Under the pieces are notes generated by a model. That model had not been told where the DNA came from, did no database searches, and worked only from the letters and a program-made list of their open reading frames with translations. Shown here in pieces: positions 18,885 to 60,510 of a DNA stretch of 64,000 nucleotides; within the stretch, counting starts at the first letter, position 1; each line of letters starts with the position of its first letter. The position numbers and the translations under genes were made by a program. Origin of the DNA: Candidatus Bathyarchaeota archaeon (lineage in GTDB: Archaea; Thermoproteota; Bathyarchaeia; Bathyarchaeales; Bathycorpusculaceae); the NCBI GenBank assembly GCA_963833575.1, contig CAWHXY010000005.1, positions 46,005 to 110,004 of the forward strand, in the 5' to 3' direction.

Positions 18885-19583
18885 CTAATTTTTTTTGGCA
18901 ATACCCATCAAGAATATTGCATATCTCTCAGTTATGTTAATCTGCAGTTTTGCTTTTTGGTAAAGTGAAATAAAAAATCGTTTCGAAAAAGAATTAACGA
19001 CGACAGTTGAACCATATTCTAGCCTGTTTAATGGTTTACCAAAAAACTTATGGAAAATTACCCTCAGAGGGTACATAGCTTTGACATAGTACAAACTTTC
19101 GATAATTCTCTGGTAACGAGATACAACTATAGCATCCGCGACAACAAAACCGTTCTTTTGAGTAATACGTGCCAACTCGATCATTGACATCAAAGGGTTA
19201 GGTAAATGCGGGAAAATTTGCATGCAATAAACAACAGGAAAACAATTGTTTCTAAAAGGTAGATGTTCAGCATCACAATTAACCATGCTAATCTTATCAG
19301 CAACGCCAACATCTTTTGCGCGTTCCCTTGCTATGCTAATCATTTCTCTAGAAATATCTGCACCGACAACCATCTCAGCATTAGATTTGACTAGAGTAAT
19401 AGATAGCCGTCCCTTGCCCATTCCAATATCAACCACTAACTTGTTTTCTGGATGAGTGAAATGCACTATGTCCATTTTCTCTTTAATGTATGCTTCTCTG
19501 TATACTCCTTCGCCTTCGGGTTCCCACCAAGAAGCTACAGTTCCATCCTTGTTAAAATATTCCTTGAGTTTTTCTTTGCTCGT
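18885..19583 (-). CDS. class I SAM-dependent methyltransferase, apparent ACG start (first ATG at 19475)
   Basis: VDIGMGKG, DIS..M, DAEHLPF; frame is open 36 codons upstream of the ATG to an ACG preceded by TAA. Confidence 0.7.
   Translation of the reverse strand, partial: TSKEKLKEYFNKDGTVASWWEPEGEGVYREAYIKEKMDIVHFTHPENKLVVDIGMGKGRLSITLVKSNAEMVVGADISREMISIARERAKDVGVADKISMVNCDAEHLPFRNNCFPVVYCMQIFPHLPNPLMSMIELARITQKNGFVVADAIVVSRYQRIIESLYYVKAMYPLRVIFHKFFGKPLNRLEYGSTVVVNSFSKRFFISLYQKAKLQINITERYAIFLMGIAKKN
18961..19067 (+). repeat. 107-bp direct repeat A (other copy 20864-20970)
   Basis: Hand alignment: 8 mismatches, no gaps. Confidence 0.92.
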
Positions 19584-19646
19584 TTAAATCCCATCTAGTA
19601 CTTCAAGTTAAAGCTAATGGAACGTTACCATATTATAAAAGTTTGT

Positions 19647-19881
19647 TGAAGAAATTGTATCGCTTATGTTTAGGATTAACATTATAGAGCTTTGGCGTCG
19701 AATTGGGTCTTTATCTTAGATTTTTCTATTTTTTTCATAACTAATTTTTAGAAGCAAGTGTAATTAGCATTTAGTCATTGGTTTGATTATTTGTGAAATT
19801 GAATTTTGCAGCTGGTTTTTGTTATTGGCTGATAAATTGGGGGTTTCACGAAAGTTTATGAGCAAGTGAACAAAGTTAATG
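19647..19881 (+). repeat. 235-bp direct repeat B (orphan copy of 23136-23370)
   Basis: Hand alignment: about 4 mismatches; contains the 3' end of GT 22180-23208 and its downstream intergenic DNA. Confidence 0.95.
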
Positions 19882-19960
19882 AAAAATTTGGAAGTGTCAT
19901 CTTTTTAATTAATTATGAATCCAAGCAAATGCGGCGTTTAAATACGTCTCTTTCATTTAA

Positions 19961-20866
19961 ATGACACGAATGCAACAAATTAACTGCCCACTATGCGGTT
20001 CAATCAACGATGTCCCGTTGTTTCAAGTCAAAGATTATCGACTGCATACGACGGAAAAAGTATTTGCCCTTGTTCGTTGTCTCCGATGTGGCACCTTATA
20101 TTTAAATCCTAGACCTAACGAAGAAGAACTCGCTAAATTTTATCCCGAAGCCTTTTACGCTGGGTCTAATTTAACTTCCAAATTGGTATCCAATTTCTTG
20201 AATCGTTTGAAATTTCGGGAAATTGATAAGTTCAAAAAAGCTGGGCGAATATTAGATGTTGGATGTGGAGACGGAGGGTTACTTTCTACCTTTAAAGATA
20301 GAGGTTGGGAAACCTATGGGGTGGATACATCAGAAAAGGCGTGTAGACTAGCTGCAAAGACTTTAGGAATAAAGGTCTGCAATTCTACGTTAAAAGATTG
20401 TTTTTTTCCTGATAGTTATTTTGATGTCGTGCTTCTTAACCACGTTATTGAGCATATGTCACGTCCAAATGAAGAACTTGTTGAAATTTGCAGAATTTTG
20501 AGAGCTAGCGGAGTTGTTTTCATATACACACCCAATATCGCAAGTTACCAGTTTGAGGTAACTGGAGACAAGTGGTTGCATTTAGATATACCGAGGCACT
20601 TGATCTTTTACTCTCCAAATAATATCCTCGTTCTTCTCAAAAAAGCTGGCCTTGAAGTGATTAAGATAAGTTTTCCTCCATTTGATTTTCCTTTTGACTT
20701 TTACTTCAGTCTTAAGCTGAAACTTGGGTCAAACTATGGTTTACTGGGCTCTATAATCTCCCCCATCTTACGTATTATCTCAATTACTGTAAAATTGTTT
20801 CCTGCTTGGAGGGGAAGTATGATAGTGGCTGCTGTTAAGAAATCCTCGCTAATTCATGCACCATAA
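19961..20866 (+). CDS. class I SAM-dependent methyltransferase with N-terminal zinc ribbon
   Basis: CPLC...CLRC, LDVGCGDG, HVIEH, TPN, PRHL. Confidence 0.88.
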   Translation: MTRMQQINCPLCGSINDVPLFQVKDYRLHTTEKVFALVRCLRCGTLYLNPRPNEEELAKFYPEAFYAGSNLTSKLVSNFLNRLKFREIDKFKKAGRILDVGCGDGGLLSTFKDRGWETYGVDTSEKACRLAAKTLGIKVCNSTLKDCFFPDSYFDVVLLNHVIEHMSRPNEELVEICRILRASGVVFIYTPNIASYQFEVTGDKWLHLDIPRHLIFYSPNNILVLLKKAGLEVIKISFPPFDFPFDFYFSLKLKLGSNYGLLGSIISPILRIISITVKLFPAWRGSMIVAAVKKSSLIHAP

Positions 20867-20970
20867 AGTGAAATAAAAAATCGTTTCGGAAAAGAATTAA
20901 CGACGACGGTTAAACCATGTTCTAATCAGTTTAATGGTTTACCAAAAAACTTATGGGAAATTACCCTCAG
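20864..20970 (+). repeat. repeat A' (orphan fragment of methyltransferase 18885-19583)
   Basis: Matches 18961-19067; begins at the TAA stop of 19961-20866. Confidence 0.92.
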
Positions 20971-21028
20971 GAGATAGATCGAGTCAAAATCGTTTGGTTA
21001 AAATTTGGAAAACATTAATGTGATTTAG

Positions 21029-22179: not shown

Positions 22180-23208
22180 ATGGCTGATAAACAAAATCCA
22201 GTTGTTTCGATAGTGATTCTGAATTATAATGGTAAACAGTTTCTTGATAGATGTCTAACTTCCATTTTTAATCAAAGTTTTTCTAAATTTGAACTTATAT
22301 TTGTTGATAATGCCTCAAATGATGGGAGCGTTCACCATATTGAAAAATTCTTCGGAAATGATCCCCGCCTTAAAATTATAGAGAATAAATCAAACTATGG
22401 ACCTATAGAAGGAAATAACATTGGTATTCTACATTCAAATCGTCAAACAAAATATGTTCTTTTACTAAATAACGATACTGAACTTATCGAGAATTGGTTA
22501 TCTTGTATGATTAACACATTGGAAAGCGACCCAAAAATTGGTGCTGCTGCTTCAAAACAATTGTTGATGGATGACCATGAACGCCTTCAAGGATTTGGTT
22601 CATTTATTGACATATGTGGGTTTAATTATCAACTTGGAGAATTTGAGATTGATAACAATCAATACAATGGCAAAACAATTGAGATTTTTGCTGGGGGAAC
22701 AACAGCTCTGTTTCTCAGAACAAGTGTTCTTAGGCAAATAGGGCTCCTTGATTCAATGTACGTGCATGGATTTGATGATATTGATCTATGTTGGCGGGTT
22801 TGGCTCAGCGGCCATAAAGTAGTTTGTGTTTCCAGTTGCAAAATATATCACAAAGTCGCAGGCACTACACGAAAAGTAAATTTAGCGCGAGTTGTTTATC
22901 ACAGAGAAAAAAATAGAATAATGACTGCAATAAAGAATTACACTATTCGTTATATAATTCGGGTGATGCCGATTATTTTGACTTTCGATTTGCTTCAATT
23001 ATTATGGTTTGTTTTTACAAATAATTTTTCTATGTTTCAATCAATCGGGCAAGCACTAATTTGGGATATAAAACATTTCAAGTATATATGGACTCAGCAT
23101 CTTAGAGTTAAATATCAAGTAAGAAAAGTCTCTGATGAAGAAATTGTGAGGCTTATGTTTAGGATTAACATTATAGAGCTTTGGCGTCGAATTGGGTCTT
23201 TATCTTAG
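22180..23208 (+). CDS. GT2 glycosyltransferase
   Basis: VILNYNG, VDNASNDGS, LNND, DDIDLCWR. Confidence 0.88.
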   Translation: MADKQNPVVSIVILNYNGKQFLDRCLTSIFNQSFSKFELIFVDNASNDGSVHHIEKFFGNDPRLKIIENKSNYGPIEGNNIGILHSNRQTKYVLLLNNDTELIENWLSCMINTLESDPKIGAAASKQLLMDDHERLQGFGSFIDICGFNYQLGEFEIDNNQYNGKTIEIFAGGTTALFLRTSVLRQIGLLDSMYVHGFDDIDLCWRVWLSGHKVVCVSSCKIYHKVAGTTRKVNLARVVYHREKNRIMTAIKNYTIRYIIRVMPIILTFDLLQLLWFVFTNNFSMFQSIGQALIWDIKHFKYIWTQHLRVKYQVRKVSDEEIVRLMFRINIIELWRRIGSLS

Positions 23209-23370
23209 ATTTTTCTATTTTTTTCAAAACTAATTTTTAGAAGCAAGTGTAATTAGCATTTAGTCATTGGTTTGATTATTTGTGAAATTGAATTTTGCAG
23301 CTGGTTTTTGTTATTGGCTGATAAATTGGGGGTTTCACGAAAGTTTATGAGCAAGTGAACAAAGTTAATG
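23136..23370 (+). repeat. repeat B' (native copy)
   Basis: Matches 19647-19881. Confidence 0.95.
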
Positions 23371-23404
23371 TAAACTTGGTATTGAAATAGCGATGGATTA
23401 CTGA

Positions 23405-35650: not shown

Positions 35651-35745
35651 TCCATTGTCTAATAATGTCTAATATTGTCTCTGCTTGCAATCAATTCAAG
35701 CACTAAACCAAAAAAGCAACCCAAAACAAGCCTTGAAAAAATTGC
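35651..35745 (+). repeat. decamer-array element E1 (3 x 10-bp TGTCT units plus conserved module)
   Basis: tccattgtct aataatgtct aatattgtct, then gcttgcaatcaattcaagcactaaaccaaaaaagcaacccaaaac. Confidence 0.8.
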
Positions 35746-35810
35746 GGCAAAACAGCTTAATATAGACACCTTATTCTTCAACGCCGAGGAACTCCACTAA
35801 GGAGGGTCTC

Positions 35811-35946
35811 AAAATAGGGTAATTCGGGACATTTTGGGACAAATGGGGACGGTTAGGGATAATTCAGGACAAATCTAGACGCAGTCTACAAACATTTCAA
35901 AACCTAAATCAAAAAAGCAATCTAAAATGCAAACAACAAAACTGGC
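35811..35946 (+). repeat. decamer-array element E2 (6-7 x 10-bp GGAC units plus conserved module)
   Basis: aattcgggac attttgggac aaatggggac ggttagggat aattcaggac aaatctagac, then gtctacaaacatttcaaaacctaaatcaaaaaagcaatc. Confidence 0.88.
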
Positions 35947-36061
35947 AACACAGATGTTGTTGTTCTTCTAATGATAATAGTCCAAAATTCATTTACATCA
36001 AGCTCACAAAAATCTCCGCTTAAACACAAGTATTATGTTCAAGCTCAGTTATCTTTTGACT

Positions 36062-39040: not shown

Positions 39041-39118
39041 CTATTTTTCTTTAGTTTCATTTATCTTTGTTTTGCGTCGCTACTGGAATAAGCCAAGTTT
39101 ATTCTCTGGTTTATTGTT

Positions 39119-39240
39119 GAAAATTTTTTCTTTGTTTTTAAGGTTGCTTTTTTGATTTAGGGTTTGTAGCGTTTGCAGGTCATGTGCTGGAATGTGCCAG
39201 AATGTGCTAGGATGTGCTGGGGTGTGGTGTTCTGTGCTGT
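39119..39240 (-). repeat. decamer-array element E3 (6 x 10-bp GCACA units plus conserved module)
   Basis: + strand catgtgctgg aatgtgccag aatgtgctag gatgtgctgg ggtgtggtgt tctgtgctgt; minus-strand module acctgcaaacgctacaaaccctaaatcaaaaaagcaacc. Confidence 0.88.
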
Positions 39241-39323
39241 TAGTGTTTTTGGCACAAGATCTATCATCAGTTTCCACTTCTTAAAAGCGCAAAGTTCAGT
39301 TTGCTGTTTTGTTGGCAGTTGAT

Positions 39324-39440
39324 GCAATTTTTTCGAGATTGCTTGAGTTGATTTTTTAGTTTAGGGCTTGTTTTGTTTGCAGGTTACGTATCCAATTGTT
39401 CCAAATTGTCCCGAAAAGTTTTGGAAAGTCCCAGAAAGGT
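39324..39440 (-). repeat. decamer-array element E4 (about 5 x 10-bp GGAC/GAAC units plus conserved module)
   Basis: Minus strand ctgggactttccaaaacttttcgggacaatttggaacaattggatacgta, then acctgcaaacaaaacaagccctaaactaaaaaatcaactc. Confidence 0.85.
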
Positions 39441-39490
39441 GATTAGGCGAACGGCGTCCATAAATGGTTTAAAAGGGGCAGAAGAAAGAG

Positions 39491-39579
39491 TTAGGCGGAT
39501 TTAGCCACGCTCTAACATCGATAAGGCGCAAAAACCGTCGGGAACGCCTTATTCCGATTTAGCCGCCAGACCCGCCCAA
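39491..39579 (-). ncRNA. candidate structured RNA (long irregular hairpin)
   Basis: Minus-strand nested pairings UUGGGCGGGUCUGGC/GCUAAAUCCGCCUAA, CUAA/UUAG, AUCG/CGAU, AUAAGGCG/CGCCUUAU, with G-U pairs. Confidence 0.4.
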
Positions 39580-39916
39580 CATCGTTGGCTCCTAGTGCTT
39601 CTCCGTTCTTGTTACCATCATAATAATTCAAAAGAATATAACATATTGTTGTCACAAAATGAAACAACAAGTGCTAACTCGAAATCATTATTTTATTCTC
39701 AGAATGTAACTTAATGTTTTGTTTCTATACTTTATTTGTTAAATCTTTAATTCTTTGCTCTTAGAACCTGAGAAATATTGCCATTCTGTAGTTTTCGAAC
39801 AGAAAAACAAAAAATGCGGACAAAAGCAGTTTTTAACGGCTAAACAGACCACAATCTAAAAAAAGGAGTATGTGTGAGACTTCGCCAATAACGTTTGTCA
39901 TCAGGAGACATCATTC

Positions 39917-48443: not shown

Positions 48444-51119
48444 ATGCAAAATTTTGAAAACAAAATCTTAGCTATAGTAATCTCGATGTTTATGATAATC
48501 GCAATCGGAGCATTACTACCCCTGCATGCACAAACTGCAAACAACATTCAAACTTATCCATACATTAATGTCGCCCCAAACCCTACCGGCGTTGGACAAC
48601 CAGTGACAGTTAACTTTTGGCTTGCCGTACCAAACGCAGATCAAGAACTCGTAACAAACATGACAGTACACGTAACACATCCAGATGGAACAACCGAAAC
48701 ACTCGGACCATTTACCTCAGATCTTACTGGAGGCACAACTACTCGATACACTCCAACGGCGGTTGGCAACTATACATTCCAATTCTTCTACGGCGGACAA
48801 ACACTTGCTGGAGCCCCTAATGCTTTCGGAGGCCCAACATTCGCAGGATATGTTAACCTACCTAGTCAAAGCGCTGTGGCAACTCTTATAGTGCAACAAA
48901 ACCCAGTGACCGGTATTCCATTTACTCCGCTTCCAACAAGTTGGTGGCAGACTCCAATTAACGCAGAAAACGTTCAAAATTGGGCTTCCATCAGTGGATC
49001 ATGGATGGGATACGCTGCAAATACATTCGCCAACACTGGAGCATTTAATGACACAGGCAACTATAACCCATATACAACAACACCTCTCACTGCTCACATA
49101 CTCTGGACAAAGCCCTGGTGTATTGGCGGCGTCGCAGGAGGAGCACTCGGTAACGACGAGCAAAACAGCAACTACTGGACAACCTCACAATATGACCCGA
49201 AATTTGCGCCAGTAATAATGGACGGAATAATGTACTCAACTTGGTATACAACCAACACCGGTGGCCAGCAAGGAATCATGGCAACAAACCTATACAATGG
49301 ACAAACCATATGGGTGATAAACACCACTGACCCCTTAAGATGCGGCATGATAGTCAACTTCGAAAACATCAATCAATACGGCGAAGTCGGTCCATACATC
49401 GTCACACAAGGTGGCGGCGGACTTTTCGCACCTCCTGGCAATTGGAAATTATATGACGGTTTAACTGGTCAATATCAATGCGAAATCGATAACACTCCCT
49501 CGTTCTCTTTCCTCGGACAAGACGCAAATGGCAACATAATTGGCTACGCTTTCAGTAGCGTTACTGGTAATATTACTGCATATCCCAACGGAAGATTTGG
49601 AGCATTTGGCAATGCCATTCAAGGAGTAACTTATACCATTAAGAACACGACTGTCTACGGACCTGCATTGATAATGTACAACTTGACAGCAGCCATGCAA
49701 GAAACCGGTTTGAACTGGGCCATAACGCTAGGCACGAAGTATTCATGGACTGACGGAATAGAATGGGTAACTCAATCGCTACCTCCAGTTGTTAACGGCA
49801 TATCTACAGCAGGCTTAGGCGGTTCAGCTTTTGGCTATTCAGCATGGTCAGGCAATACACTAGTGATGAGCGCAGGAGCCACCTCTGTCGAAGAAACATT
49901 AGGCTGGCTAGTCGAAGCAGGCTTTAGCGCAACCGACGGCTCATTACTGTGGATACAAAATCGAACAGGAGGCGCATACGTACCTTTCACAAGGACAAGC
50001 AATACCCCCTCAGCCGCAGCTGGAGTCTACGTTGAAATAAACCAAGCTACCTATGACATGGAAGCCTTCTCTCTAACTACAGGCCAAAAAGTATGGGAAA
50101 ACTCTCTCAATGTGCTAATGTCTGACGGTCACATGCCAAACACTTATGACGAATTTGACTTCGAAACTGTTCCAGACACAACAACTGGCGTATTGTACGT
50201 TTGGGCTTTAGGAGGAGACGTTTGGGCTGTCAACATGACAAACGGTGCTATTATCTGGTCGTTTAGTTCTGCACAGGCCAACGGAGACGCAGGAACTGAA
50301 ACACCCTACGGTATTTACCCAATATGGGTCTTCTCTGACGAAGCTCTAGCAGGCAGTACCAGCCCAGTACTATATCTCTCTGAAGGTCACGAATACAGTC
50401 CACCACTATTCCACAATGCACAAGTATTAGCAATAAACGGCACTACAGGACAATTAATATGGAGCAACCTAGCTTTCGATGACACAGCAACAGCAGTAGC
50501 ATATGGAGTAATGACGACATTTAACTCCTACGACGGCCAGATTTACGCTTACGCACAAGGACCAAGCAAAACAACCATCAGCGCACCACAAATCGGCGTA
50601 TCAACAGCCACACCAGTGACAATTACAGGTACAGTAACTGATGTTTCTGCCGGCGCATCCCAACAAGCAGTTGCAGCAAACTTCCCCAATGGATTACCAT
50701 GCGTTTCTGACGCCAGCATGACACCGTTTATGGAAGCAGTTTATGAGCAGCAAGCAATGCCACACAACATCACCGGAGTTCCAGTGACAATATCTGTTAC
50801 AGACTCTAACGGCAACTACAGAGACATCGGAACAACAACAAGCAATGCCTACGGCACCTACAGCCTAGTATGGACACCAGATATTACAGGCAATTACACA
50901 GTCACCGCAACCTTCGCAGGCTCAGGAGCATACTATCCATCGTCAGCAGCAACAGCATTCTACGCAAGTAGCCCACCAGCAACTCAAGCGCCAACAGCCG
51001 CACCCGCGTCAAACTTAGCAACATCAGTCGAACTAATGACATACATAGTCATAGCAGTAATCGCAATAATTATTGCAATAGCTATAGTCGGCATACTTGT
51101 ACTAAGAAAGCATGCATAA
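48444..51119 (+). CDS. large secreted surface protein with PQQ-like beta-propeller and C-terminal TM anchor
   Basis: Signal peptide, repeated A...TG...W blades, Ig-like segments, P/T/A linker, TM and KKH tail. Confidence 0.8.
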   Translation: MQNFENKILAIVISMFMIIAIGALLPLHAQTANNIQTYPYINVAPNPTGVGQPVTVNFWLAVPNADQELVTNMTVHVTHPDGTTETLGPFTSDLTGGTTTRYTPTAVGNYTFQFFYGGQTLAGAPNAFGGPTFAGYVNLPSQSAVATLIVQQNPVTGIPFTPLPTSWWQTPINAENVQNWASISGSWMGYAANTFANTGAFNDTGNYNPYTTTPLTAHILWTKPWCIGGVAGGALGNDEQNSNYWTTSQYDPKFAPVIMDGIMYSTWYTTNTGGQQGIMATNLYNGQTIWVINTTDPLRCGMIVNFENINQYGEVGPYIVTQGGGGLFAPPGNWKLYDGLTGQYQCEIDNTPSFSFLGQDANGNIIGYAFSSVTGNITAYPNGRFGAFGNAIQGVTYTIKNTTVYGPALIMYNLTAAMQETGLNWAITLGTKYSWTDGIEWVTQSLPPVVNGISTAGLGGSAFGYSAWSGNTLVMSAGATSVEETLGWLVEAGFSATDGSLLWIQNRTGGAYVPFTRTSNTPSAAAGVYVEINQATYDMEAFSLTTGQKVWENSLNVLMSDGHMPNTYDEFDFETVPDTTTGVLYVWALGGDVWAVNMTNGAIIWSFSSAQANGDAGTETPYGIYPIWVFSDEALAGSTSPVLYLSEGHEYSPPLFHNAQVLAINGTTGQLIWSNLAFDDTATAVAYGVMTTFNSYDGQIYAYAQGPSKTTISAPQIGVSTATPVTITGTVTDVSAGASQQAVAANFPNGLPCVSDASMTPFMEAVYEQQAMPHNITGVPVTISVTDSNGNYRDIGTTTSNAYGTYSLVWTPDITGNYTVTATFAGSGAYYPSSAATAFYASSPPATQAPTAAPASNLATSVELMTYIVIAVIAIIIAIAIVGILVLRKHA

Positions 51120-52041: not shown

Positions 52042-52243
52042 GAGAAGTAAGAACAACAACAGTTGCCAGTAGTACCGGGTTGTTGTTCTTCTCTTGAAAG
52101 AAGGAGGAGGACAATCGCAGGGAGCACCGTCCTCCTTCTTCTAACTGGTTAAAAAAGAAGAAACCTGCGGTGGGCACTTCTTCTGCTGATTCGGTTTGTC
52201 TGTTGAGCTTTCAAGTATTGAAGAGATATTTGTCTAAAGGTTA
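52042..52243 (+). repeat. triple-hairpin direct repeat, copy 1
   Basis: Aligns with 56832-57038; three inverted-repeat units and terminal AGCTTTCAAGTATTGAAGA. Confidence 0.92.
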
Positions 52244-56831: not shown

Positions 56832-57038
56832 CAGAGAAGAAGAACAACAACAGTTGTTGGGTGCACCGGGTTGTTGTTCTTCTCTTGAAAGAAGGAGGAG
56901 GACAATTGCAGGGAGCACCGTCCTCCTTCTTCTGACTTTGAAAGAAGAAGAAACTCGCAGGAAACACTCATCTTCTTCTACCTGTTTGGAGTTAACTGAT
57001 TAGCTTTCAAGTATTGAAGATATGTTTGTGGAAAATTA
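56832..57038 (+). repeat. triple-hairpin direct repeat, copy 2
   Basis: Aligns with 52042-52243. Confidence 0.92.
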
Positions 57039-59691: not shown

Positions 59692-60080
59692 TCGTTTCCT
59701 TCCTACTTCACAATTCAAGTTACAGGTTTTGCCTATGAGTTTTTTGGTCAGAATACACCTTTCATAGACATTAATCGAAAAATGAACTCAGACACCCGCA
59801 TTTCTCTTTCTTGTTCTAGCATACAAAACTAGTTGCAATGAGGACGAAAATACTGCATGAGTATCATTCTCCCTTGACGTTATCTAATCATTTTATGGTG
59901 CAACGTGTGTGCGATTATTTTTATTTAACAGCCTGCATTAGAGGTGTTGCCTGTGAAGATAAACACGTCAGTCGGAGAAAGGATTGGTAGTCCTATTTGA
60001 TGATGTCAGTTAACGAATTCTGAGGCACATAAAAACAATAAACAAAACACGTTGACTTGATTTTGAAGCGGTTTTTTGGA

Positions 60081-60220
60081 GCAAATTTTTTTGTTTGTGT
60101 TTTGAGTTGCTTTTCTGTTTTGGGGTTTGAATTGTTTGCAGGTTGAGTCAGGAAAAGTTAAAATTAGTTAAAAAAAGTCACAATAAGTCAGGAAAAGTTG
60201 AAATAAGTCAAAATAAATTA
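60081..60220 (-). repeat. decamer-array element E5 (8 x 10-bp TGACT/TAACT units plus conserved module)
   Basis: + strand ggttgagtca ggaaaagtta aaattagtta aaaaaagtca caataagtca ggaaaagttg aaataagtca aaataaatta; minus-strand module acctgcaaacaattcaaaccccaaaacagaaaagcaactc. Confidence 0.9.
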
Positions 60221-60237
60221 GAAAACGAGATGAGCCT

Positions 60238-60510
60238 ATGCCTTTAACACACAGAGTAACGTTTAAGAGACCTATAGAAGGCTGCAACAAAATACAAGTT
60301 CCAAAGCTCATTCGATGGCAATTTAAGTTAGAACCCAACCAAGTCCTGTACATCGGAATAACCGGATTTGGAAGAGGCTGGGAACATTTCTACTCAAAAA
60401 TGGGTAAAGACGGACGCATATATATTCCAAAAGCCACCATGTTCGCAGCCAGTAGCAAGACCGAAAGCGCCGCAGGCTGCCTAATAGAAGTAACACTTGA
60501 ACCGACCTAA
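60238..60510 (+). CDS. tandem AbrB/SpoVT (MraZ-like swapped-hairpin) DNA-binding protein
   Basis: Two repeats of the AbrB-type motif: IEGCNKIQVPKLIR and MGKDGRIYIPK. Confidence 0.65.
   Translation: MPLTHRVTFKRPIEGCNKIQVPKLIRWQFKLEPNQVLYIGITGFGRGWEHFYSKMGKDGRIYIPKATMFAASSKTESAAGCLIEVTLEPT

Follow-up and report, generated by a model that had tools for sequence, protein, structure and literature searches.

A dispersed element with phase-locked 10-bp box arrays in a Bathyarchaeia genome and its probable reading by a family of small AbrB-superfamily proteins

Introduction

The window analysed here, a stretch of 64,000 nucleotides from a Candidatus Bathyarchaeota archaeon (contig CAWHXY010000005.1), contains five copies of an intergenic element in which a conserved module is joined to an array of 10-bp units whose core differs from copy to copy. 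The question raised by this locus is why the constant part should be coupled to a variable one, and what might read the variable part. A preliminary description had proposed two answers, namely that a constant platform and a code of one unit per helical turn are read by an oligomeric DNA-binding protein in the manner of an operator, an iteron or a centromere, or that the element is the end of a small mobile element. Since the genes of the window, such as those of Rpr2, S19e, L31e and eIF-6, show the genome to be archaeal, a sigma-54-like or Bacteroidota promoter was rejected as an explanation. Here we describe the anatomy and distribution of the element, a gene family that adjoins its arrays, and the readings that the two together allow.

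Results

Anatomy of the element

All five copies (E1 to E5) were found by direct reading of the sequence where the preliminary description had placed them, and a search with a profile of the five revealed no further module match within the window. The features of the five copies are as follows.

35653..35682, + strand: E1 array, 3 TGTCT(A) boxes with a 10-bp period; gene-less copy
35683..35750, + strand: E1 module, GCTTGCAATC...GAAAAAATTGC; nhmmer E 1e-12, alignment
35804..35883, + strand: E2 array, ~7 GGGAC units; gene-less copy
35884..35951, + strand: E2 module, a 3' variant ending in ...TGGCAAC...TGTTGTTGTTCTTC; profile match and alignment
39113..39180, - strand: E3 module; profile match and alignment; gene-less copy
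39181..39240, - strand: E3 array, 6 GCACA units
39317..39384, - strand: E4 module; profile match and alignment; gene-less copy
39385..39434, - strand: E4 array, ~5 decayed GGGAC/GGAAC units
60076..60143, - strand: E5 module; profile match and alignment
60144..60223, - strand: E5 array, 7-8 TGACT/TAACT units, occupying the gap between the E5 module and the fam23 gene
60205..60237, + strand: spacer of ~33 nt from the last E5 box to the fam23 start codon, with the TATA-like AAATAAAT; read from the sequence
60238..60510, + strand: fam23 gene, encoding a 90-aa predicted DNA-binding protein and transcribed away from the E5 array

The module is 62-68 bp long and A/C-rich, and the array of contiguous 10-bp units is found on one side of it only. 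An alignment of 45 modules gave the consensus ACCTGCAAACAATTCAAACCCTAAATCAAAAAAGCAACCCAAAACA.A.AGAAAAAAATTTGC (mean column identity 75%), in agreement with the one derived earlier from the window. Each helical turn carries one box of about 4-5 bp, as a rule G-A/T-C with flanks. In all five copies the core C of the last unit stands 5 nt before (C)CTGC, as had been claimed, and one helical turn separates the last box from the most conserved edge of the module, CCTGCA. The contiguous units, which have no unique spacers between them, likewise bear out the earlier statement that the element is not a CRISPR array. A coding function of the module was rejected because its ATG triplets fall in different frames in different classes. 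The spacer between the E5 array and the fam23 start codon, which overlaps the edge of the array, would be the fam23 promoter, judging from its sequence.

Several other features of the window were recorded in passing. A 98-nt repeat (52049-52146 and 56840-56937; 92% identical), both copies of which lie in intergenic gaps of the ORF listing, consists of two hairpins, AAGAACAACAAC...GTTGTTGTTCTT and GAAGGAGGAGGAC...GTCCTCCTTCTTC; its half-motif TGTTGTTGTTCT also ends one module variant (that of E2 and others) and has 26 occurrences in the genome, spread over both strands. Two pairs of direct repeats are unrelated to the element, one of 245 nt (19644-19888 and 23133-23377; 97% identity) and one of 116 nt (18961-19076 and 20864-20979; 90% identity), and in both the copies are a few kb apart. 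An 891-aa protein with PQQ/BamB-like, Filamin and Ig-like domains (48444-51119) probably belongs to the second-largest paralog group of the genome (30 members; median length 891 aa). The stretch 39475-39679, upstream of the eIF-6 gene, holds no listed ORF of at least 60 aa and no Rfam match at the gathering score; it is kept at 72-78% in several relatives, in which the neighbouring intergenic DNA is not.

Copies, periodicity and box classes in the genome

It had been proposed to scan the genome and shuffled DNA with a profile of the five modules, to measure the 10-bp autocorrelation of the flanks and to catalogue the cores together with the adjacent genes. The profile gave 69 matches at E<0.01 in the 2.75-Mb genome, a Bathyarchaeia MAG, and after one iteration 80 matches at E<1e-3, as against none in a shuffled, third-order-Markov genome, the sole match of which had E=1.2. 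In the 70-bp stretches immediately 5' of the 80 modules, the autocorrelation at lag 10 amounted to 0.59, compared with 0.25-0.30 at lags 5-9 and 11-15 and 0.28 in background intergenic DNA. The 10-bp period is phase-locked to the module, and 66 of the 80 elements exceed the 99th percentile of the background. When the 10-bp register is counted from the module, position 7 is a C in 76% of the units and position 5 a G in 70%. The number of units per array ranges from 0 to 10, with a median of 6.

The units are more alike within than between copies, as the preliminary description had noted, and the arrays fall into about 14 box classes, the largest being TGTCA/GTCAA (13 copies), AGCTT/AGATT (11), TAC(G/T) (9) and TGACT (7), followed by TGACG (6), GGGAC (5), AACGC (5) and TGTCT/GTCTA (4). 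Within a class, the box cores are kept while the spacers vary, and classes such as GCACA, AACGC, TGACG and TGACT recur in other species.

The elements are intergenic, with only 3 of the 80 touching gene calls, which outside the window came from a crude ORF caller. They group into 62 clusters, of which 47 hold one copy, 12 two and 3 three, with one orientation within each cluster and tandem copies spaced 150-210 bp apart. When the element is read from array to module, the flanking genes are arranged as <,< in 24 clusters, >,< in 17, >,> in 13 and <,> in 8. The bias among these intergenic settings looks mild, both between the two orientations in co-directional gene pairs (24 vs 13) and between convergent and divergent settings (17 vs 8).

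The gene family that adjoins the arrays

Clustering of the ORF calls revealed a family of proteins of 90-93 aa, here called fam23, every member of which is encoded on the array side of an element and read away from it. A six-frame profile search found exactly 10 copies in the genome (E <= 9e-8; next match E 0.22), nine intact and one with a stop codon, and each of these has a module no more than 400 bp away, lies on its array side and is divergent from it. The association extends to other genomes. In the rest of the genus, a divergent module lies within 400 bp at 22 of 30 fam23 loci, including one (L170) at which the module is present and no array is visible, and among further loci elsewhere it lies within 330 bp at 26 of 35. 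Most of the remaining loci show 2-5 phased boxes, identified by eye, followed by a diverged A/C-rich stretch, and the same arrangement is seen at loci from two other families of the order. In locus alignments of several genomes, homology runs from the far end of the module to the fam23 stop codon, and we therefore regard module, array, short promoter and gene as one unit, which when complete measures about 450-500 bp.

No conserved partner gene accompanies this unit, the neighbours of the 10 fam23 units, those on the module side included, being mutually unrelated, and no toxin partner was found beside fam23 in this genome. One relative carries three fam23 genes 1,539 bp apart (L154, G012:C1:6126-9398), which alternate with pairs of small ORFs that by eye are ribbon-helix-helix-like and PIN-like, an arrangement that resembles VapBC, is absent here, and suggests a tandemly repeated unit of a regulator and a toxin-antitoxin-like pair. 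As to translation, G is enriched at -12 to -8 before ATG starts throughout the genome and before most fam23 genes, which suggests Shine-Dalgarno-led translation, and in the AACGC/AGTCGC clade of fam23 a TATA box about 30 nt before the ATG suggests leaderless mRNAs.

Family and predicted fold of the fam23 proteins

Four fam23 proteins gave no Pfam family at E<=1, and the PADLOC defence models gave no match. Among the NCBIfam models, AbrB (TIGR01439) scored below threshold (14.6 bits against a cut-off of 28.3; E 0.02). A large protein collection contained 682 relatives at E<=1e-3, and the 120 of these that were listed have no Pfam domain and are mostly unnamed or "hypothetical". An AlphaFold2 model built from 116 sequences (pLDDT 88, pTM 0.77) found its best PDB match in PhS018 of Pyrococcus horikoshii (2glw; E 3e-6, TM 0.73, 23% identity), followed at ranks 2-10 by chains of MraZ (E 2e-3 to 9e-3, TM ~0.5). 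The sequence profile of fam23 also picks 2glw, weakly (E 0.12), as the only meaningful profile-to-sequence match. The fam23 protein is thus predicted to be a single-chain swapped-hairpin barrel of the AbrB/PhS018/MraZ type. A viral origin received little support, with one partial match, at a contig end, among viral contigs.

Co-variation of proteins and boxes

A Mantel comparison of protein identity with box-profile similarity gave r 0.396 for 28 gene-array pairs (reached by 0 of 2000 permutations) and r 0.388 for an enlarged set of 53 pairs from the genus (0 of 5000), in both cases from related sequences and hence not from independent samples. The signal appears to reside mainly in residues ~10-20, which form the first hairpin and precede the conserved VQ(I/V)PK. 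Among 76 protein pairs that are at least 70% identical outside this segment, the segment is 79% identical in the 41 pairs with like arrays and only 58% identical in the 35 pairs with unlike arrays, and mutual information with the box peaks at residue 16. T(G/A)ACTT boxes are faced by all five proteins, drawn from four genomes, that carry ...EGCNK(V/I)QVPK...; ...KKRDLLY(I/V)PK... proteins face CACACA, ...LQKQNRLQ... proteins GTACTT and ...QNQSRFQ... proteins TAC(G/T). L146, L145 and L165 share one genomic position, where the first has AACGG boxes and the other two AGTCGC boxes, with proteins that differ mainly in residues 10-20, so that the protein and all of its boxes seem to have switched together in place. 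As such, the co-variation strongly hints that fam23 binds the boxes, with specificity for the box apparently set in the first hairpin.

The arrays as probable operators

Given these observations, we consider it probable that each array is a multi-box, paralog-specific operator to which fam23, a small and so far undescribed protein of the AbrB superfamily, would bind. Different fam23 paralogs would recognise different boxes, and the fam23 copies are presumed to be lined up on one face of the DNA, as is the MraZ octamer on its 3-4 boxes. As the gene is read away from the array, box-bound fam23 would sit on or beside its own promoter, and this position suggests autoregulation as in MraZ, AbrB and antitoxins. 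The module would be the class-independent part, set at a constant distance from the last box, and its CCTGCA edge could serve as a docking or nucleation site common to all classes. Of the readings in the preliminary description, a platform with a one-turn code for an oligomeric reader is thus favoured by the adjacency of fam23, the co-variation and the predicted fold, while its iteron and centromere forms are left without support because the copies number about 80 and Rep and Par genes are absent.

Possible functions of the module

The module might itself be a portable regulated promoter that fires away from the array, with the boxes as upstream activating sites and with gene-less copies driving non-coding or antisense transcripts, or neighbouring genes, under fam23 supplied in trans. 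Its centre, CAAACC-CTAAATCA on the strand running from array to module, resembles the BRE/TATA motif of the genome. With a matrix built from 37 tRNA upstream regions of the same genome, the best match on this strand falls at module position 14 in 37 of the 80 copies, and module scores are higher in the forward than in the reverse direction (median 3.66 vs 1.25). The motif is also similar to the promoter of fam23 genes in the AACGC clade (TTCTAAACGCTTAAGTA), and in distant relatives the corresponding place holds a strong TATA (ATATTTAAAC at L158, CTTTTAAAAG at L161). Transcription would then start near module position 51, about 55 bp downstream of the last box, which would put that box at a place usual for archaeal activators. 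However, the matrix match is weak in absolute terms, as its median best score of 3.66 compares with a background mean of 2.64 and is reached by 29% of background windows, and conservation ends about 12 nt past the predicted start. Moreover, the next gene on that side is convergent in 41 of the 62 clusters, often at a distance of 11-100 bp, and where it is co-directional it may have a TATA of its own, as at C4:35752. Array-distal flanks, whether of gene-linked or of gene-less copies, could not be separated from background with the same matrix. We therefore regard a portable promoter as possible but rather doubtful.

Alternatively, the module might act as an insulator. On the strand towards the gene, 69 of the 80 modules contain a run of at least six T (T6-T9), and T runs stop archaeal transcription, so these runs would stop transcription arriving from an upstream gene. 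A T5 tract of their own is nevertheless about equally frequent in genes that end by a module and in others (11 of 30, vs 31-43% genome-wide), which amounts to no deficit. Owing to the weak matrix match and this usual frequency of T5 tracts, neither function of the module stands out.

Gene-less copies and turnover among relatives

About 70 of the 80 elements, E1-E4 included, consist of array and module with no adjoining fam23 gene, and their classes and placement, as well as their differences between species, speak against the operator reading. Beside them, traces of a lost gene were limited to one pseudogene (GTCAA class) and one weak remnant at the DNA level, the other 68 showing none. The commonest classes, namely TGTCA/GTCAA, AGCTT/AGATT, TGACG, GGGAC and TGTCT/GTCTA, have no intact cognate fam23 gene in this genome. 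Other genomes supply cognate genes for GGGAC (L205), TGACG (L168 and L159) and the ACCTT type (L200), and none for TGTCA/GTCAA, AGCTT/AGATT or TGTCT/GTCTA among 65 loci. On the array side, the distance from a gene-less copy to the neighbouring gene is mostly 160-800 bp, and these copies are not placed like operators of the neighbouring genes. They would be either further binding sites for fam23 proteins acting in trans or remnants.

A sequence-only covariance model was run against 36 sampled genomes of the genus and 24 from the other families of the order; it matched the module in 24 of the former, at between 1 and at least 77 places per genome, and in none of the latter. The gene follows the module closely, fam23 being present in 20 of the 36 genomes, all of which have module matches, and absent from all 12 genomes without them, while four genomes have 1-6 module matches and no fam23; these counts come from related genomes and hence not from independent samples. 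Turnover between species is quick. Where the window has 400-550 bp with elements, some relatives have empty intergenic regions of 75-140 bp, and at the same sites in other species the presence, class, number and even orientation of the elements differ. Homology to the E3 module and its flank is kept in the closest relative found (88% identity), whose array there belongs to another class.

This turnover is also what would be expected if the gene-less copies were selfish or decaying DNA, with cassettes of module, array and fam23 that spread, or recombine through the module, and that have mostly lost the gene and become functionless. A copy number that ranges within the genus from 0 to at least 77, the empty regions of the relatives, the differences at shared sites, the pseudogene and the gene remnant, and the occupation of all four intergenic settings with a mild bias (24/17/13/8 of 62 clusters) are in line with it. 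On the other hand, 68 of the roughly 70 gene-less copies bear no trace of a gene, conservation is confined to array and module, and neither terminal inverted repeats nor target duplications were seen. The modules are 70% identical within a class and 67% between classes, with unrelated flanks, which indicates that the copies are old and not recent transpositions. The box cores and their phase are kept in 66 of the 80 copies, which argues for selection and against selfish DNA, and we hold this explanation to be unlikely. For the same reasons (no inverted ends, no duplications, no recent copies), the idea of a mobile-element end is not upheld in the form in which it was proposed, and the element differs from a MITE also in that its modules are 67-70% and not nearly identical. 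Comparison with empty sites, which had been put forward as a check, yielded short empty regions in some relatives and no target duplications, with intergenic DNA too diverged, or synteny too broken, for the borders to be placed exactly.

A reading in which the arrays act by DNA shape would have the phased A/T-rich spacers form curved DNA that positions archaeal chromatin or stimulates a promoter, with the cores as a by-product of array homogenisation. The strict 10-bp period and the A/T-rich spacers are consistent with this, and arrays are slippage-prone, as about 14 CCCGTT hexamers lie between the array and the fam23 gene at one locus of this genome (L141, C6 ~214,750-214,860) and seem to have arisen by expansion of the box sequence. 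However, cores that are kept while spacers vary are the opposite of what selection on shape alone would leave, the same classes recur across species, and the classes co-vary with the neighbouring protein, which together make the shape reading very unlikely.

RNA data were searched as well. The run search returned 12 RNA runs, each with 5-8% of the words, and Logan contigs from four of the RNA runs, which are mostly 90-95% alike and thus derive from relatives, fall mainly on coding genes and give no strand, start or end. One of these RNA-library contigs carries a different element, with an AGAGTCG-type array. A small-RNA gene, for instance a repeat-bearing protein sponge, is scarcely credible, as tandem copies in one orientation 150-210 bp apart and one contig from a relative's RNA library that spans a whole element (with neither strand nor ends, such that read-through or DNA may account for it) stand against a window with no Rfam 15 family at the gathering score, a module strand that is A/C-rich with almost no pairing potential, and nothing conserved outside array and module.

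Discussion

The present study links a dispersed repeat of a Bathyarchaeia genome to a family of small proteins, and the operator reading gains from comparison with known systems. In PMC12957436, MraZ is described as an octamer that cooperatively binds GTG(G/T) boxes with 6-nt spacers, 3-4 of them in a row before its own gene. MraZ and, according to its model, fam23 both belong to the AbrB superfamily and have both halves of the barrel in one chain, and both face direct-repeat boxes of about 4 bp with a 10-bp period immediately before their own gene. The differences are nevertheless considerable. MraZ has about 150 aa and two PF02381 domains, whereas fam23 has 90-93 aa and no Pfam match to MraZ or AbrB; MraZ is the first gene of the bacterial dcw division and cell-wall cluster, whereas fam23 is archaeal and has no dcw context; MraZ is one gene, whereas fam23 reaches up to 15 matches per genome, paralogs with different boxes; and in place of 3-4 boxes there are arrays with a median of 6, attached to a 62-bp module and for about 70 of 80 without a gene. 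By analogy, fam23 and its arrays may thus work like MraZ and its boxes, without fam23 being a member of the MraZ family, from which it differs in sequence, size and context.

PhS018 is close to fam23 in size (92 vs 90 aa) and shares the single-chain swapped-hairpin barrel predicted for it, at 23% identity. To our knowledge, no DNA target or function has been assigned to PhS018. The AbrB, MazE and VapB proteins (PF04014) are of the same fold class and control their own genes through operators in front of them, but unlike fam23 they build the barrel from two chains, and they usually recognise palindromic or loosely defined sites; two classical MazE-type genes happen to lie near arrays in this genome. 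Tandem repeats of about one helical turn that are bound cooperatively by small proteins, with repeats and protein co-varying between replicons, are found in iteron/Rep, ParR-parC and omega-heptad systems. These serve one replicon at one or two sites, in contrast to the approximately 80 chromosomal sites described here. A full-text search of one literature library found no description of the element or of the fam23 system.

Here we also speculate, tentatively, that the system goes further than a set of operators and constitutes a natural, rapidly diversifying recognition code. One barrel would sit on each helical turn, residues ~10-20 would set the 4-5-bp box, and protein and boxes would switch in place. 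The module would turn each array into a portable control cassette, acting as promoter or insulator, about 80 such cassettes would serve some 10 orthogonal regulators, and transcription would be rewired between species by the switching of class. We would give this extended version less than even chances.

Should the binding prove true, fam23 and its arrays would represent the first archaeal counterpart of DNA recognition by MraZ, with many paralogs that each have their own operator. The dozens of natural protein-box pairs would form a data set on how the swapped-hairpin barrel reads DNA, and might also supply small orthogonal regulator/operator pairs. The gene-less copies raise the further question of whether cassettes of operator and module spread and switch class as units. 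For the Bathyarchaeia, of which we know no cultured members and almost no regulation, the fam23 system would explain a genus-wide repeat family of soil and peat lineages.
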